Shown: piece after piece, positions 17,127-21,790 of the stretch
Layout of the letters: the number at the start of each line of letters is the position of its first letter
Numbering within the stretch: position 1 is the stretch's first letter
DNA from: a virus
Direction: 5' to 3' (one strand)
IMG/VR virus record: IMGVR_UViG_3300042876_000891
Span: 1 to 37,277 of that record
DNA: 37,277 nt
Made by a program: the position numbers and the translations under genes
The notes under the pieces: model-generated
Databases searched by the model: none
What the model was told of the DNA's origin: nothing
Seen by the model: the letters and a program-made list of their open reading frames with translations, nothing else

Positions 17127-17470
17127 GACACGTCCTCCTCGCGCAGGCGCCACTCGCGGATGGTCTTCGTGGGTGGTCTCCAGCCGTGGACCAGGAGCCG
17201 GATGCCGGCCTCGCGCAGGAGCGGCACGAAGGCGTTCGCGGCGATCTTGTCCAGGCGGGCGTTGATGTTCGACGCGGAGGTCGTCTGGACCAGGACGAGC
17301 TGGCCGCGGGTCTCCGGCGTCTTGCCGACGGCGAAGACGTCCCACGCGTTGAAGAGGTCGCGCTTGAACACGAGGGGGCCGGCGCGGACGGTCTGCTCGA
17401 CGACCCACGGCTCGTAGCCGCGTTCGCGCAGGAGCTCGAGGGAGCGACTGGTCGGGGACTGCTTGGCCAT
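17123..17470 (-). CDS. Putative PD-(D/E)xK-fold nuclease / Holliday-junction-resolvase-like protein (115 aa)
   Basis: The ATG shares one base with the dnaB stop. The DLFNAWDVFAV...LVLVQTTS arrangement resembles the D...(E/Q)xK core of small resolvases. The call is weak. Confidence 0.35.
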   Translation of the reverse strand: MAKQSPTSRSLELLRERGYEPWVVEQTVRAGPLVFKRDLFNAWDVFAVGKTPETRGQLVLVQTTSASNINARLDKIAANAFVPLLREAGIRLLVHGWRPPTKTIREWRLREEDVS

Positions 17471-18918
17471 CAGTCGATCTCCTCGAAGCGGGAGTACTTC
17501 CGGTCGGCGTAGAGTTTCACGACGCCCTTCGGCCCGAGGCGCTGCGCCGCGATGATGAAGTTGAAGGGGCCGTGCTCGCGCTTCTCCGGGTTGAGCGCGA
17601 GGTCGAACGGGTGGTGGATGAAGCAGACGGCGTTCGCGTCCTGCTCGAGGGCGCCCGACTCGCGGAGGTCGTGCAGCTGCGGAGGCGGCATCGGCTCGTC
17701 TTCGGGGGGCGTCTCGGGCTCGGGCGGCGGCGGTGGCGTGACGCCTGGGAGGGCCATCGGGTCGGCCTTCGGCTTCGCCTTCTTGCGGGCCGGGCGCCAC
17801 GGTTTCTCTCCGCGCTTCGCCGACTCGCGGTTGAGCTGAGCCAGGGCGAGGACGGGGACGCCGGTGCGCTGCGCGAAGGACTTCAGCGCGCGGGAGATCG
17901 TGGCGACGACCTGCTCGCGGGTGGCGTTCTTCCCGAGCTCGAGCTGGACGAGCTGGATGTAGTCGACGACGACGAGCGAGAGGCCGTGCTTGCGGTGGAG
18001 CTTCTCGGAGATGCGGAGGATCGCGCCGAGGCCGTGGTGGTAGTGGTTCGCGTGCAGGTAGCCGTGGGTGCCCTCGGGAACGCGGCGAGAGACGGCGTGC
18101 TGGATGCCCTCCCAGTGCTCCGGGGTCCAGTTGTTCACGTCGTCGAAGAACTCGGTCGAGTCGATGCTGAGTTCGCGCGAGAGGTCCAAGGCGACGACCT
18201 CGGGGACGGACATCTCGAGCGAGTGGAAGGCGACGTGCTTGCGCTGGAGCGCGACGGTGTCGGCGAGCTGGCGGGCGAAGGTGGTCTTCCCGACCTTCGA
18301 GCGCGCGCCGACGATGACCAGGTTGCCCGGCCGGATCCGCAGGATGCGGTCGATGCGGTCGAAGCCGGTCGTGAGGCGCTTCGAGTTGCCCTGCTTGATC
18401 GCCTCGACGGCGTCGATGGTCTGGAGCGCGGCCTCTTCGTACGAGACGACCTCGGGCTGATCGGGGTGGTCGATGTCGAGCAGCGTCGCGGTGACGCCGG
18501 CGACGATGTCGTCGGTCGCGGCGCCTCCGTCTAGGGCTTCGACGGCGCGGGTGAGCATGGCGCGCGTCTTCGCGCGGCGGTGGCGATCGAGCAGCGCCTG
18601 GGCGTGGTCGCGGACCGTGGACCCGCGGGTGGCCAGGTCGTCGACCGAGTGCTCGGCCGTGAGGAGCACCTGCCGGGCGTCGTCCGAGAGACCGGTGTCG
18701 GCTATGAGTTGGGCGTGGTCGATCGGGCCGGCGGGGAGCTTCTTCGTGCGCGAGAGCCGCTCGATGCCGGTGAGCGCGGCGCGCAGGGTGCCGTGCTGCA
18801 GGATCGAGCTCGAGAAGCCGGCGGGGAGGTCGTAGAGCGCGTCGGAGCGCGCGAGGACGGCGCCGACGACGCGCATCTCGAGCTCGAACGCGGTGACCTC
18901 GACGTTCGTGAGCCTCAT
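17470..18918 (-). CDS. dnaB: DnaB-like replicative helicase (482 aa) with a Pro/Lys-rich insertion
   Basis: Walker A VGARSKVGKTTF, Walker B LVVVDYIQL, and LAQLNRE...DLRESGALEQDANAV are all typical DnaB C-terminal domain motifs. Confidence 0.8.
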   Translation of the reverse strand: MRLTNVEVTAFELEMRVVGAVLARSDALYDLPAGFSSSILQHGTLRAALTGIERLSRTKKLPAGPIDHAQLIADTGLSDDARQVLLTAEHSVDDLATRGSTVRDHAQALLDRHRRAKTRAMLTRAVEALDGGAATDDIVAGVTATLLDIDHPDQPEVVSYEEAALQTIDAVEAIKQGNSKRLTTGFDRIDRILRIRPGNLVIVGARSKVGKTTFARQLADTVALQRKHVAFHSLEMSVPEVVALDLSRELSIDSTEFFDDVNNWTPEHWEGIQHAVSRRVPEGTHGYLHANHYHHGLGAILRISEKLHRKHGLSLVVVDYIQLVQLELGKNATREQVVATISRALKSFAQRTGVPVLALAQLNRESAKRGEKPWRPARKKAKPKADPMALPGVTPPPPPEPETPPEDEPMPPPQLHDLRESGALEQDANAVCFIHHPFDLALNPEKREHGPFNFIIAAQRLGPKGVVKLYADRKYSRFEEID

Positions 18919-19826
18919 GCGTGGCCGCCCTTCTTCGCGAGCTCGGCCTTCTCCTCGGGCGTGAGCGGCGGCTTGTAGACCGGGCGCTTCAGGCCGGTGG
19001 CCTGCTCCCAGGTCTTGCCGTCGGTGCGCTCGAGGAAGGCCTGCTGGTCGACCCAGGCGGCGGGGTCGTTGAAGTCGGGATCGCCGAGCTTCGGGTTCTC
19101 GCCGGCGTCGCGGTGCGGACGAGCGGGCTCGAGCTCGTCGATGAACGTCGCGACGTAGTCGAGGGTCTTCGGCGTGGTGCCGCTGTCGCGACAGCGATCG
19201 GCGCAGAGGGCAGCGGCGGCCTCGGGACCTCCGAGGCGCTCGACGTGTTCGCGCAGCTCGGCCGCGAGCTCGGGCTTCGCGAGCCGGAGGGGGTTCATGC
19301 CGACGATCGCGAGCTGGTCGGCGAGGGCTCGGCGGAAGGTGCCGAGCGGATCCCCTGCGTGCTCAAGAGATCTTGATCCTTGTGGATGTGGATGTGGATG
19401 TGGATCGCTTGGCGAGGCTTCCCTTTCGCTTGAGCCTCGCTTAAGCCCTGCTTTAGCCCTGCTTCCGTCCGTAGGTTCCCGGTTTCTGGGGGCTTTCCCG
19501 CCCTTGGCACCGGCGGCGGCAAGTCGCTGTCTCAATTCCTGGGCCCTGCTGCGCTCGGTCTCCATCCGCCTCGACACGAGACGCTCCGCGTCATCGGCGG
19601 CGACGAAGCGGTCTCCGATGGCCGCCCAGACGCGCTTCATCGCCTCCTCGTCGAGGTGAAGCATGCGGCGGATCGCCTCTGTCGAGGACGGGATCGATCC
19701 CTCGCGCCAGCACATCAGCAGGAGGTGGAACCAGGCGCCCTTCTCCTCGCACGTCCAGCCCTGGAAGCGCTCGTCGGAGAGCGTCTCCTGCGCGTAGATC
19801 GGGAACCACGGGAGTTCGCCGGCCAT
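18915..19826 (-). CDS. Replication initiation / helicase-loading protein with a DUF1376 (YdaU)-like N-terminal domain (303 aa)
   Basis: WFPIYAQETLSDERFQGWTCEEKGAWFHLLLMCWREGSIP matches the DUF1376 pattern. The stop overlaps the dnaB start (ATGA). The protein contains a (His-Pro)n linker. Confidence 0.55.
   Translation of the reverse strand: MAGELPWFPIYAQETLSDERFQGWTCEEKGAWFHLLLMCWREGSIPSSTEAIRRMLHLDEEAMKRVWAAIGDRFVAADDAERLVSRRMETERSRAQELRQRLAAAGAKGGKAPRNREPTDGSRAKAGLKRGSSEREASPSDPHPHPHPQGSRSLEHAGDPLGTFRRALADQLAIVGMNPLRLAKPELAAELREHVERLGGPEAAAALCADRCRDSGTTPKTLDYVATFIDELEPARPHRDAGENPKLGDPDFNDPAAWVDQQAFLERTDGKTWEQATGLKRPVYKPPLTPEEKAELAKKGGHA
19382..19405. repeat. Hexanucleotide repeat (GTGGAT)x4 encoding PHPHPHPH in the replication protein
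   Basis: Four exact tandem copies are visible in the sequence. Confidence 0.9.
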
Positions 19827-20108
19827 CTACTCCTCCTCTTGCGGATTGCGTGGCCGCCCGCGGTGGCGGTCTGCTTGGGCGTACCGGAGCGCCGCCTTCC
19901 GGAGTCGATCCCAGGTCACGGGGAGATCGTCGGCGGAGACCTCCACGGCGGCCGCGTACTCGAGCGCAGCCACGCGCAGGTTCCAGGCGGGATGAGCGAC
20001 GCGACCGCCGGTGCGGCGGTCCACAAAGCAGGCCCCCGAGGTGTCGATCCTCGCGTGCGCGGGTTTGGAGTCCGCGCTGCTCGCCGGAGCGGGGCCCGGG
20101 TTCTTCAC
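19827..20108 (-). CDS. Hypothetical protein (93 aa)
   Basis: GTG at 20108 overlaps the upstream TGA (GTGA). The central region reads plausibly. Confidence 0.5.
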   Translation of the reverse strand: MKNPGPAPASSADSKPAHARIDTSGACFVDRRTGGRVAHPAWNLRVAALEYAAAVEVSADDLPVTWDRLRKAALRYAQADRHRGRPRNPQEEE

Positions 20109-20332
20109 TGGATGACGTCCTCACAGCCGTAGCCGTCGCCGTAGCCGGAGCCGTCGCCGTAGCCGTCGCCGTAGCCGTAGCCGTAGCCGTAGCCGTCGCC
20201 GTAGCCGTCGCCGTCGCCGTCGCCGTAGCCGGAGCCGTCGCCGTAGCCGTAGCCGTAGCCGTAGCCGTAGCCGGAGCCGTCGCCGTAGCCGGAGCCGATC
20301 GACGGCGTGCCGCGCAGGATCACCGCGTCCAC
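20105..20332 (-). CDS. Gly-Tyr/Asp/Ser alternating-repeat peptide (75 aa, or 72 aa from the alternative GTG at 20323)
   Basis: GGGAGAAGG lies 4 nt upstream of the GTG at 20332. The second GTG, at 20323, overlaps the upstream TGA. Text: ...ILRGTPSIGSGYGDGSGYGYGYGYGYGDGSGYGDGDGDGYGDGYGYGYGYGDGYGDGSGYGDGYGCEDVIQ. The stop is coupled to the next gene. Confidence 0.6.
   Translation of the reverse strand: MDAVILRGTPSIGSGYGDGSGYGYGYGYGYGDGSGYGDGDGDGYGDGYGYGYGYGDGYGDGSGYGDGYGCEDVIQ
20126..20296. repeat. Hexanucleotide microsatellite, about 28 tandem units of GCCGTA / GCCGTC / GCCGGA
   Basis: Uninterrupted 6-nt periodicity over about 171 nt, in frame with the minus-strand ORF. Confidence 0.95.
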
Positions 20333-20625
20333 GGCGCCTTCTCCCAGGCCTCGGCGGCCGCCGGCGTGACCTCGGCGACGCAGGTGATCGCGCGGAGCTG
20401 GATGTCGGCGGGCGGGCCGATCCTGCACGAAGCGTTCGGGCCGGTGGACGCGAGGCCGAGGAAGCCCTTCACGTCGGCGGACCAGTAGACGCAGTTGCGC
20501 GCGCGCTTCAGCGCGATCGTCTCGCCGTCCGTCTCGGTCGCGTACCCGAAGAAGACGCCGCGGTGGACGGTGGTGACCAGGACAGCGCGCTCGGTCGGGG
20601 TGCTCTTCGTGGACTTCTTCGCCAT
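20320..20625 (-). CDS. Hypothetical protein (101 aa)
   Basis: The ATG at 20625 is preceded by GAAGGAG. The text is plausibly globular (MAKKSTKSTPTERAVLVTTVHRGVFFGYATETDGETIALKRARNCVYW...). Confidence 0.6.
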   Translation of the reverse strand: MAKKSTKSTPTERAVLVTTVHRGVFFGYATETDGETIALKRARNCVYWSADVKGFLGLASTGPNASCRIGPPADIQLRAITCVAEVTPAAAEAWEKAPWTR

Positions 20626-20690: not shown

Positions 20691-21092
20691 CTACGTCTCC
20701 TCGCCGTAGGCGCGCCGGAGGATCGCGTCGCCTGCCGCGCCGGACGCCCGGAGCTCGCGCTCGAGCAACTCGAGGCGCTCCTCGGGGGAGAGCTTCCGCG
20801 CCGGGACGATCGCCTGCTCTCGGAGCGCGGCGAGGTGGCGCAGGATGCGGTGCTCCCGGTCCACCTCGAGCACGGCCGGGAGCCACTCGACCGAGAAGTT
20901 CTTCCCTGAGGAGTGGAGCGCGGCGGAGAGGTGGGAGGGGGCGACGCCGAGGTCGGAGGCCAGGCCGTCGGCCTGCTTCACCTCGGCCTTCACGACCTCG
21001 CGGATCACGGCGAGCAGCTGCTGGCCGGCGCGCCGGTAGACCTGGCGGTGCTCGAAGGCCAACGGCAGGACCTGCTGTTTCGACGGTGCCAT
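20691..21092 (-). CDS. Putative DNA-binding regulator (133 aa)
   Basis: The ATG at 21092 is preceded by AGGAGGGG. It has an HTH-like segment (QADGLASDLGVAPSHLSAALHSSGKN). It is the second gene of the leftward operon. Confidence 0.45.
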   Translation of the reverse strand: MAPSKQQVLPLAFEHRQVYRRAGQQLLAVIREVVKAEVKQADGLASDLGVAPSHLSAALHSSGKNFSVEWLPAVLEVDREHRILRHLAALREQAIVPARKLSPEERLELLERELRASGAAGDAILRRAYGEET

Positions 21093-21191: not shown

Positions 21192-21425
21192 TCACGGGGT
21201 CAGAAGGTCAGCGGGACGGCGGCGCAGCGCCTTCGCCAGGCGCTCGATGCGGGCGAGGCCGACGCCCCGCTCCCCGCCCTGCGCGTTCTCGATGCGCGAG
21301 ACGTCGGCGGCGGTGAGGGCCGCGGCGCCCGCGAGCTCCTCCTGGCTGAGCTCGAGCTCCTCGCGGGCCTTCCGGACGTTCTTGGCCAGGACCTCGGCAG
21401 CGGAGAGGGTCTTCGGGGTCTTCAT
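21192..21425 (-). CDS. XRE-family HTH transcriptional regulator (Cro/CI-type, 77 aa)
   Basis: MKTPKTLSAAEVLAKNVRKAREELELSQEELAGAAALTAADVSRIENAQ fits the HTH_XRE pattern. It is the first gene of the leftward arm and abuts the operator repeats. Confidence 0.8.
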   Translation of the reverse strand: MKTPKTLSAAEVLAKNVRKAREELELSQEELAGAAALTAADVSRIENAQGGERGVGLARIERLAKALRRRPADLLTP

Positions 21426-21426
21426 G

Positions 21427-21442
21427 TTGTCGTGGATAGCAA
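21427..21442. promoter_or_regulatory. Operator-like site O1, TTGTCGTGGATAGCAA (imperfect palindrome)
   Basis: It shares TTGTCGT..AT..CAA with three other sites. It starts 2 nt from the XRE gene start codon. Confidence 0.6.
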
Positions 21443-21451
21443 CTCCTACCG

Positions 21452-21467
21452 TTGTCGTCAATGACAA
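21452..21467. promoter_or_regulatory. Operator-like site O2, TTGTCGTCAATGACAA (TTGTC-N6-GACAA inverted repeat)
   Basis: Perfect 5-bp arms. It lies 25 bp from O1 in the divergent intergenic region. Confidence 0.65.
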
Positions 21468-21514
21468 GCCGGGGGCCCACATCCAACTACCCGGAATCGC
21501 TAGACTCCGACCAC

Positions 21515-21790
21515 ATGTCGCGAGAGCTCGCACAGCCCCCACCGAAGAGCCGCTACTCCTACAAGTCGGCGACGCGCGAGATCGCGCGCGAGTTGAGTTC
21601 GAGGGAGGAGGCCGGGCTGCAGAAGCAGGTCGCGGGGTACTGCAACCTGACGGAGCCGCAGTTCTCCCACCGGATGAGGGGCGTCTACTCGTTCTTCAAG
21701 GTCGAGCACTTCGGCGCGATCGCCGACTTCCTCGAGATGCCGCCCGGGTGGCCCTTTGTGCCGGCGGAGCCGAAGGGACGGAGGAAGTGA
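21515..21790 (+). CDS. Small protein divergent from the XRE gene, a possible HTH regulator (91 aa)
   Basis: ATG at 21515. The segment REIARELSS...LQKQVAGYCNLTEPQFSHRMRG is HTH-like. It is the first gene of the rightward arm. Confidence 0.45.
   Translation: MSRELAQPPPKSRYSYKSATREIARELSSREEAGLQKQVAGYCNLTEPQFSHRMRGVYSFFKVEHFGAIADFLEMPPGWPFVPAEPKGRRK

Follow-up and report, generated by a model that had tools for sequence, protein, structure and literature searches.

A hexanucleotide repeat encoding an alternating glycine protein forms the second gene of a two-gene phage cassette with DUF6948

INTRODUCTION

The window analysed here is the whole 37,277-nucleotide (nt) stretch of viral DNA in IMG/VR record IMGVR_UViG_3300042876_000891 (positions 1 to 37,277). 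Its minus strand carries, at 20105..20332, a small open reading frame (ORF) built largely of a hexanucleotide repeat, in which glycine alternates with a second residue X (Gly-X, or GX) that is Tyr, Asp or Ser. This GX gene follows a gene for a DUF6948 protein, and the two make up a conserved phage cassette. With high confidence we take the repeat to make up the bulk of a real gene of that cassette, one that is under selection, and the window gene adds a member to a still unnamed family with a wide presence in sequence databases; hundreds of phages carry a similar gene. What the protein does is a more tentative matter. Our preferred reading, to which we give a probability of roughly 0.3 to 0.4, is that the GX protein would serve as a low-complexity tail of DUF6948 supplied in trans. 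An earlier note, made from the sequence of the window, had described the array and its peptide; it overlooked the cassette context, that is, the gene directly upstream, whose DUF6948 product is predicted to be Sm-like and is fused to the repeat in some proteins.

RESULTS

The repeat is the outstanding array of the window (20125..20297, minus strand; period 6, 28.8 copies, 87% matches, score 255 in Tandem Repeats Finder). Its units on the minus strand are 15 GGCTAC (Gly-Tyr), nine GGCGAC (Gly-Asp) and four GGCTCC (Gly-Ser), in the order SYDSYYYYYDSYDDDYDYYYYDYDSYDY, and interruptions limit the longest pure run to five units. The array codes for 57 residues of strict Gly-X alternation within a 75-residue ORF that runs from GTG 20332 to TGA 20105, and the translation matches exactly the peptide that the earlier note had read from this strand. 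The strict stretch comprises 28 uninterrupted pairs (X being Tyr 15 times, Asp nine times and Ser four times), where at least ~20 had been sought; the Gly-X run as a whole amounts to 29 pairs, against six for the runner-up across the six frames of the window and a maximum of eight in 100 shuffles. The product (7.4 kDa, net charge -11.5, 40% Gly, 20% Tyr, 15% Asp, one Arg and no Lys) has the layout MDAVILRGTPSI-(G-[Y/D/S])28-GC-EDVIQ, with the N-terminal leader MDAVILRGTPSIGSGYG. A higher-order periodicity of the array was considered and rejected: a 42-nt self-match at 93% is close to expectation for an array of three unit types with one base of difference between them, and the X residues follow one another in near random order.

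Translation may begin at GTG 20332 (75 residues) or at GTG 20323 (72 residues) and stops at TGA 20105-20107. In the Joint Genome Institute (JGI) annotation, where the window is contig Ga0453684_0003232, the gene call is the 75-residue version, and GTG 20332 matches the commonest start position among relatives. Four nt 5′ of this codon we read from the sequence a Shine-Dalgarno-like GGGAGAAGG (20345-20337 on the minus strand), in line with the purine-rich site of the earlier note; it falls within the codons for a conserved W-E-K of the DUF6948 C-terminus, where W94 and E95 are invariant or nearly so in DUF6948. The DUF6948 stop codon (TGA 20320-20322) is overlapped by GTG 20323 in a GTGA at 20320-20323, a 4-nt overlap that grows to 13 nt when counted from GTG 20332. 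Start/stop coupling had been described on both sides of the gene, and upstream this stands. Downstream, a GTGA at 20105-20108 does link the GX stop to a possible start of the next ORF, but that gene may instead start at GTG 20024, which is the JGI choice, and codon-position GC is ambiguous at 20040-20160. The GX frame is the -1 frame relative to DUF6948, and a programmed -1 frameshift producing a DUF6948-GX protein was considered; we rejected it in favour of coupled re-initiation because no slippery heptamer precedes the stop, the gene has an ATG of its own in many relatives, and in several a gap separates the two genes.

It is very improbable that the feature is not a protein-coding one in the ordinary sense, that is, that the array is a DNA-level element, that the antisense (Ala-Val)n ORF is the product, or that the ORF encodes a precursor whose Tyr residues are modified. 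A 212-residue ORF of the plus strand (19850-20488) is indeed open across the array and reads (Ala-Val)n, and the repeat sits just upstream of the replication genes. Codon-position GC, however, fits the minus-strand GX frame only: GC at codon position 3 in that frame is 0.93-1.00 over the array (window G+C, 70%), the third positions of the antisense ORF misfit the genome's bias at that position, and the plus-strand frame that shares its third position with the GX frame contains TAG. Relatives moreover keep the GX pattern with different codons and in frame with protein domains, and no promoter-like site, terminator-like site or Rfam match was found in 19.0-22.0 kb. The comparative data thus largely refute the non-protein readings, and the antisense ORF is a by-product of the repeat. 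As to a modified-peptide precursor (radical SAM, YcaO or P450 systems), the neighbours are CII-like, DUF6948, orphan ORF, DUF1376 and DnaB genes. No enzyme that might modify the peptide adjoins the gene in the window, and none recurs near the cassettes of 103 loci, which makes the substrate role that the earlier note had entertained for Tyr modification unlikely.

The array is not an assembly artefact, because the same DNA was assembled independently from other samples. The array-bearing DNA is 100% identical in the assemblies of two of them (L170 and L171), and a third contig (L169) is identical over 3,358 nt and stops among the first repeat units, ~50 nt beyond the start of the ORF. Against Pfam, PHROG, NCBIfam and PADLOC the GX protein gave only sub-threshold, low-complexity matches (a serine-rich protein, and TrAA12 at 22 bits against a cut-off of 30.9). 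A homology search with the 75-residue protein returned weak, composition-driven matches, all of them 'hypothetical', and the exact sequence is absent from the protein collection searched. No near-identity DNA match to the 12-kb neighbourhood was found among cultured phages.

The cassette emerges from comparison of loci. A search of viral contigs with the DUF6948 protein gave 43 loci, to which genome bins added four more, and 45 could be assessed. In 42 of these 45, an ORF that is largely (G-[Y/S/D/N])n begins within a few bases of the DUF6948 stop, mostly 12 or 3 nt before the end of the stop codon. Two of the three exceptions are cut by contig ends, and in the third (L024) the repeat, though degenerate, still shares its frame with a C-terminal domain. 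An independent set was assembled from viral contigs sharing one exact 21-nt piece of the array (at least 120 loci). In this set, retrieved by the repeat DNA alone, 108 GX ORFs could be tested with the DUF6948 profile, and 47 of them have a DUF6948 gene as their direct upstream neighbour. The genome-contig matches were only four metagenome bins, each of a different phylum; the cassette was seen in human-gut contigs and in bins of Acidobacteriota, Chloroflexota and Gemmatimonadota, and the DUF6948 family itself numbers ~1000 clusters at 50% identity.

Cultured phages were out of reach of a tblastn search with the window DUF6948 and the relatives' C-terminal domain, which found no match among them, but a more distant DUF6948 query did reach them and yielded 16 annotated phage records. 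A GX ORF follows DUF6948 in all eight records examined: Ralstonia phage NK-7, Iodobacter phage PhiPLPE, Pectobacterium phages Ymer and Sabo, Chlorobiaceae phage CV-1-33, Vibrio phage IKEMa6-1 and two uncultured phages. Annotation of the gene in these records varies. The GX protein is a 73-residue hypothetical protein in Ymer and Sabo and a 'fibroin heavy chain-like protein' in NK-7 (XCO36015.1). In PhiPLPE (NC_011142; L183 1164-1409, between gp84 and gp83) the 81-residue GX ORF is unannotated, and in CV-1-33 (L185 2770-3027) the gene is annotated in the wrong frame as (Met-Ala)n.

The ends of the protein are conserved as well. An N-terminal motif, VDA[VL]I[LV]RG / [VI][IL]RGxxP, recurs in relatives, [VI][IL]RGxxP being that of the close subfamily (VDAVILRGTPS in the window; VDAVILRGAPT, VDALIVRGSVP and VDAIILRGNAP elsewhere), and so does the C-terminal tail (CEDVIQ in the window; SQDVVQ and SQDIV in L006 and L014). 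The window has the stand-alone form, as do at least ten other complete relatives. All the features by which we recognise the family (a GX run, DUF6948 directly upstream, the leader and a net-negative repeat) are present in the window gene. Frame, N-terminal motif and C-terminal tail being conserved, and the repeat being in frame with a further domain in many relatives, the earlier impression of an ORF that looks expressed, rather than of spacer DNA, is supported. No constant third gene of the cassette was found among the 103 loci; the neighbours vary and include RecT/Erf, YqaJ exonuclease, SSB (single-stranded DNA-binding protein), DNA methyltransferase and regulators.

Other classes of small (Gly-X)n ORF lie at loci that have no DUF6948 nearby, some of them as tandem paralogues (L060, L061, L070, L088, L106, L113, L127-L129, L154, L155, L158 and others). 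The leader is M-x-F-R-P-V-G in one class, which also has a basic tail, G-T-V-S-x-x-R-R-R; further classes start LTLDG, MKYPKG (ending AYPYxLVTR) or MAIKTVNEDAHS.

In some phages the two partners form one polypeptide. The viral locus L057 encodes DUF6948 and the repeat together (Pfam E 3e-23), and a database search with this fusion protein found both orders, DUF6948-GX (P0323, P0339, P0363, P0365-P0367) and GX-DUF6948 (P0364, P0368, P0416, P0422), as well as TIGR02996-GX-DUF6948 (P0383, P0428; TIGR02996 E 1.6e-15). TIGR02996 is otherwise the N-terminal mate of repeat proteins in Gemmata; besides P0383 and P0428, the three-part form with this 'repeat-companion' domain was noted for P0370, P0373, L064 and P0035. 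The repeat is joined also to DUF7666, to an uncharacterised 'GAC-motif' N-terminal domain and to one or the other of two uncharacterised C-terminal domains. It runs on in frame, in about half of the relatives, into a conserved 115-residue C-terminal domain, for which a PDB sequence search found nothing and whose comparison with DUF7666 is weak (profile comparison E 0.06, probability <1%; weak matches in two of 17 members). None of these extra domains was found anywhere in the window.

A second conserved C-terminal domain (IKSFNG…FAHGETL…WHHxLTGSC…) follows the repeat in gut-type phages (L048, L065, L076, L080, L083, L085, L109, L117, L138, L152, L153, L188). It has no Pfam or PHROG match and is 30% identical to a gene of Riemerella phages CRP5 and CRP6 annotated 'ribonuclease inhibitor'. 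Two further database proteins, both relatives of the window DUF6948, could be assembly artefacts or real variants: in P0298 the first ~60 DUF6948 residues are joined directly to the C-terminal domain that usually stands behind the repeat, an arrangement that loss of the array and the gene junction would produce, and in P0180 DUF6948 runs into the GX frame via a frameshift.

The composition of the arrays is restricted. Family-wide, X is Tyr (0.41), Asp (0.23), Ser (0.21) or Asn (0.09), so that Asp, Ser and Asn make up 53%. These common residues are all single-base neighbours of the Tyr codon, yet the remaining residues one base away from TAC occur 30-70 times less often (His 0.008, Phe 0.007, Cys 0.003), although His and Cys can be reached by transitions. 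The Ser codon is nearly always TCC or TCT and never AGC. Inside one array the codons are almost monomorphic, while other phages use GGC-TAC, GGG-TAC or GGC-TAT for the same pattern. The homogeneity within each array points to slippage of the DNA; the same amino-acid pattern over different codon sets, with His, Cys and Phe excluded, points to selection at the level of the protein. Tyr is present in every array (0.15-0.83 of X), interspersed in near random order with a median longest Tyr run of 3. Across 102 cassettes the arrays are net negative in 98% and never net positive. Between 0 and 0.53 of the X residues of an array are Asp. The earlier description of an acidic, Gly/Tyr-rich low-complexity protein is sound for the window, but strong acidity is common rather than universal in the family, and the range of Asp weakens metal binding and DNA mimicry as general functions.

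These data bear on the possibility that the repeat is a passive, largely neutral linker or remnant, a tolerated slippage-prone spacer of which the window copy is decaying and stays open only through indels in multiples of six. The repeat does sit between folded domains in many relatives, its length ranges from ~16 to 140 residues, the codon homogeneity of each array points to recent slippage, and the window copy is without the relatives' C-terminal domain. We nevertheless judge such a linker unlikely. Divergent phages have among them at least 11 complete stand-alone versions in which start, motif and tail are kept. X is confined to a strongly reduced alphabet that mutation would not be expected to give, no array is basic, and a Tyr content of 40% is unusual for a linker of this kind. 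An unselected GX ORF should also decay fast, because TAC is one step from two stop codons (TAA and TAG); of 53 loci, however, 50 have retained an open frame.

Length differences in the array separate the members of five genome pairs that are 97.8-99.7% identical: the indels are of 6, 6, 6, 6 and 54 nt, all of them multiples of 6, as expected from the claim that length changes would stay in frame. One of the pairs comprises the closest relatives of the window cassette, with identical DUF6948 (P0054) and GX proteins of 65 and 63 residues. The in-frame length polymorphism that had been predicted is thus borne out in the family; for the window array itself the word 'hypermutable' is overstated, because that array is interrupted and is identical in every other contig covering it (in full in L170 and L171, over the first units in L169).

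It is doubtful, in our view, that the (G-Y/D/S)n protein acts by autonomous self-assembly, forming beta-sheet fibres, a hydrogel or a condensate through Tyr-Tyr contacts with DUF6948 as a mere neighbour or client. Stand-alone GX ORFs are common and include the classes lacking DUF6948 and the tandem paralogues; the constant, interspersed Tyr resembles a sticker-spacer pattern; and AlphaFold draws a long beta-hairpin, though with a confidence that is meaningless. Yet a charge of -11.5 over 75 residues opposes self-association unless cations or a basic partner are at hand, and the tight coupling and fusions with DUF6948 argue against the protein acting alone in the cassette context.

The partner gene (20320..20625, minus strand) encodes a 101-residue protein with an isoelectric point of 9.2 that matches Pfam PF22253 (E 1.2e-22). 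From a 36-sequence alignment AlphaFold2 predicts a five-stranded barrel with two helices at a predicted local distance difference test (pLDDT) score of 87.4. Nearly all of the top 50 PDB matches of this model in Foldseek are Sm/LSm-fold chains (E 7.9e-3 to 6e-2; template modelling score, TM-score, 0.4-0.7, up to 0.71 on target), and in a viral structure library DUF6948 proteins come first, followed by Sm-like and Hfq-like phage proteins. A PDB sequence search with DUF6948 gave no match at E <= 1. The GX protein alone, predicted by AlphaFold2 from a single sequence, has no confident fold (pLDDT 36.5), a value that does not by itself show disorder because single-sequence predictions often give poor models.

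Charge and position could also suit a host-directed nucleic-acid mimic or decoy, like Ocr or ArdA, that blocks DNA- or RNA-binding defence or nucleoid proteins. The gene lies in an early operon, its charge of -11.5 is in line with the negative arrays of the family, and an aromatic and acidic pattern might imitate base and phosphate. We think this decidedly unlikely: Pfam, PHROG, NCBIfam and PADLOC gave no match to any family of mimics, defence or anti-defence proteins; Asp varies between arrays and is almost absent from some; the GX protein is without a confident fold, unlike the known DNA mimics, which are folded proteins; and the pairing with DUF6948 would be left unexplained. Membership of the Ocr and ArdA families was rejected on the same missing matches and missing fold.

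The minus-strand operon around the cassette runs in the order helix-turn-helix regulator, CII-like protein, DUF6948, GX, orphan ORF, DUF1376/primosomal-like protein, DnaB-like helicase, HNH endonuclease and small terminase subunit, and is the early/replication arm of a tailed phage. The helix-turn-helix regulator (21192-21542) was assigned by family matches; the regulator at 20691..21092 is weakly CII-like, its matches lying below the Pfam cut-off (Phage_CP76 E 5e-4; phrog_101 E 1.5e-3). The downstream orphan ORF (19827..20108, minus strand; from the ORF list and the JGI call) has 93 residues from GTG 20108 or 65 from GTG 20024. It lies outside the conserved cassette, having no homologue in any fetched locus and no family match in Pfam, PHROG or NCBIfam. 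The replication module (17470..19826) comprises the DUF1376/primosomal-like protein (18915-19826) and the DnaB-like helicase (17470-18918), both on the minus strand and both recognised by family matches. The former holds a second hexanucleotide repeat (19381-19405, minus strand; period 6, 4.2 copies, 100% matches) coding for a His-Pro dipeptide run (SDPHPHPHPQG), seemingly an inter-domain linker of the replication protein. In the latter a ~50-residue Pro/Glu-rich insertion (KPKADPMALPGVTPPPPPEPETPPEDEPMPPPQ) divides the DnaB_C match into two stretches.

DISCUSSION

We propose that the GX protein, which is probably unstructured, may be a low-complexity tail of DUF6948 supplied in trans, because the gene is paired with, or fused to, a small basic barrel, because the tail is flexible, aromatic and acidic but never basic, and because the cassette has an early DNA-metabolism position, while barrels of this fold class typically bind RNA or single-stranded DNA. 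Translation of the two proteins would be coupled through the overlapping stop and start codons, and the tail that other phages carry in cis, as a fusion, would here be given in trans. Tyr would make adhesive contacts resembling those of bases; Asp and Ser would space them with negative charge or polarity, and flexibility would come from Gly. Such a tail could modulate the barrel's presumed nucleic-acid binding, in the manner of the acidic tails of Hfq and SSB, or could multimerise the barrel into higher-order assemblies, and would act in the early phase of replication and recombination. The array lengthens or shortens by in-frame 6-nt slippage, and selection holds X to Tyr, Asp, Ser or Asn. 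The sequences show the gene and its frame, the cassette, the fusions, the restricted composition and the slippage. Both the physical partnership and the mode of action are what we infer here, and the probability given at the outset applies to them.

Several observations weigh against this proposal. In the set retrieved by the repeat pattern, 61 GX ORFs have no DUF6948 upstream, so the repeat can work in other contexts. In some fusions the repeat merely connects two folded domains, which fits a passive linker equally well. The Sm-like character of DUF6948 is a fold-level resemblance: Pfam gives PF22253 only, with no LSM or Hfq match, and no Sm1 or Sm2 motifs were identified. Because the assignment comes from the predicted fold, nucleic-acid binding by DUF6948 is itself something that we infer. 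Opposite net charges of the partners favour the proposal, the arrays being negative in 98% of the 102 cassettes, but the core of DUF6948 carries a net positive charge in only 75% of them. Finally, literature searches on the domain names and repeat motifs found no paper on DUF6948, DUF7666 or phage repeats of this kind.

A bolder version of the trans-tail proposal, which we offer as a speculation with the odds against it, is that DUF6948 and GX form a widespread, previously unrecognised two-part system, with a nucleic-acid-binding ring of Sm-like type and a detachable acidic, Tyr-rich tail. The tail might then gate the ring by imitating single-stranded nucleic acid, or might drive a condensate for early replication and recombination. 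The system would be a phage counterpart of the Sm/LSm granule scaffolds of eukaryotes, with the length of the tail tuned by in-frame slippage.

The nearest annotated relatives in cultured phages are NK-7 XCO36015.1 and the proteins of Ymer and Sabo, which belong to the same cassette: a (G-[S/Y/D])n ORF of 73-137 residues lies right after a DUF6948 homologue in the early region. Their leaders (MKRWHKPSG, MSKLIKPEKYG) differ from that of the window (MDAVILRGTPSI), they contain more Ser, and the name 'fibroin' reflects composition.

Among well-known proteins, the Sm/LSm/Hfq group with tails offers a likeness in its small Sm-type barrel with a repetitive Gly-rich tail, and in SmD1 even in dipeptide periodicity. 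Escherichia coli Hfq has an acidic C-terminal domain, SmD1 and SmD3 have Gly-Arg dipeptide tails and yeast Lsm4 has a prion-like tail; tails of the acidic kind control the binding of nucleic acids, and those of low complexity drive the assembly of granules. The differences are that the tail here is a separate gene, fused only in some relatives, that X is Tyr, Asp or Ser rather than Arg or Gln/Asn, and that DUF6948 is without detectable sequence relationship to these proteins, the resemblance being one of fold. SSB combines an oligonucleotide/oligosaccharide-binding (OB) fold with a Gly-rich disordered linker, which supports cooperativity and condensate formation, and an acidic tip. It resembles the cassette in having a small beta-barrel with a Gly-rich, disordered part and an acidic end, encoded among recombination and replication genes, and SSB, Erf and RecT genes lie near the cassette in several phages. 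In SSB, however, the barrel type is different, the linker is Gly/Gln/Pro-rich, not strictly alternating and without Tyr, and the tail is always in cis. For an Sm-like protein with a tail of this sort there is a precedent in Acinetobacter, whose Hfq has a repetitive, Gly-rich C-terminal domain (PMC5663733).

The FUS-type [G/S]Y[G/S] regions share Tyr 'stickers' in a Gly/Ser background, and the GX protein has 15 GYG motifs in 57 residues. FUS, in contrast, is nearly uncharged, Gln-rich and not strictly of period 2, whereas the GX protein has 15% Asp, a net charge of -11.5 and no Gln or Asn. With the fibroin heavy chain of Bombyx mori (GAGAGS / GAGAGY) the protein shares strict Gly-X alternation from hexanucleotide-type repeats and an X that is in part Tyr or Ser. 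The likeness to silk that had been drawn for the window survives as one of composition, while Ala and GAGAGS are absent. Membership of the silk fibroins was rejected: the array lacks Ala (the main X of silk), the protein has 75 residues against ~5000, contains acidic residues, has no signal peptide and is non-homologous. A survey of prion-like domains in phage proteins mentions neither glycine nor tyrosine (PMC5694896).

The cassette has a consequence for annotation, since GX genes have been missed (PhiPLPE), placed in the wrong frame (CV-1-33) or misnamed (NK-7), and low-complexity filters hide such genes from homology searches. If the trans-tail proposal is true, phages of many bacterial phyla carry a compact module, in which a barrel of predicted Sm-like fold and a Gly-Tyr/Asp/Ser tail would serve a defined task of early infection. 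Conceptually, the cassette would be a further form of the known pairing of a small barrel with a low-complexity tail, set apart by an unusual, strict dipeptide alphabet and a split-gene layout. Because the module occurs in culturable phage-host pairs, the hosts being Ralstonia, Pectobacterium, Iodobacter, Vibrio and Chlorobiaceae, it would offer a tractable bacterial system for sticker-spacer or tail-mimic mechanisms.

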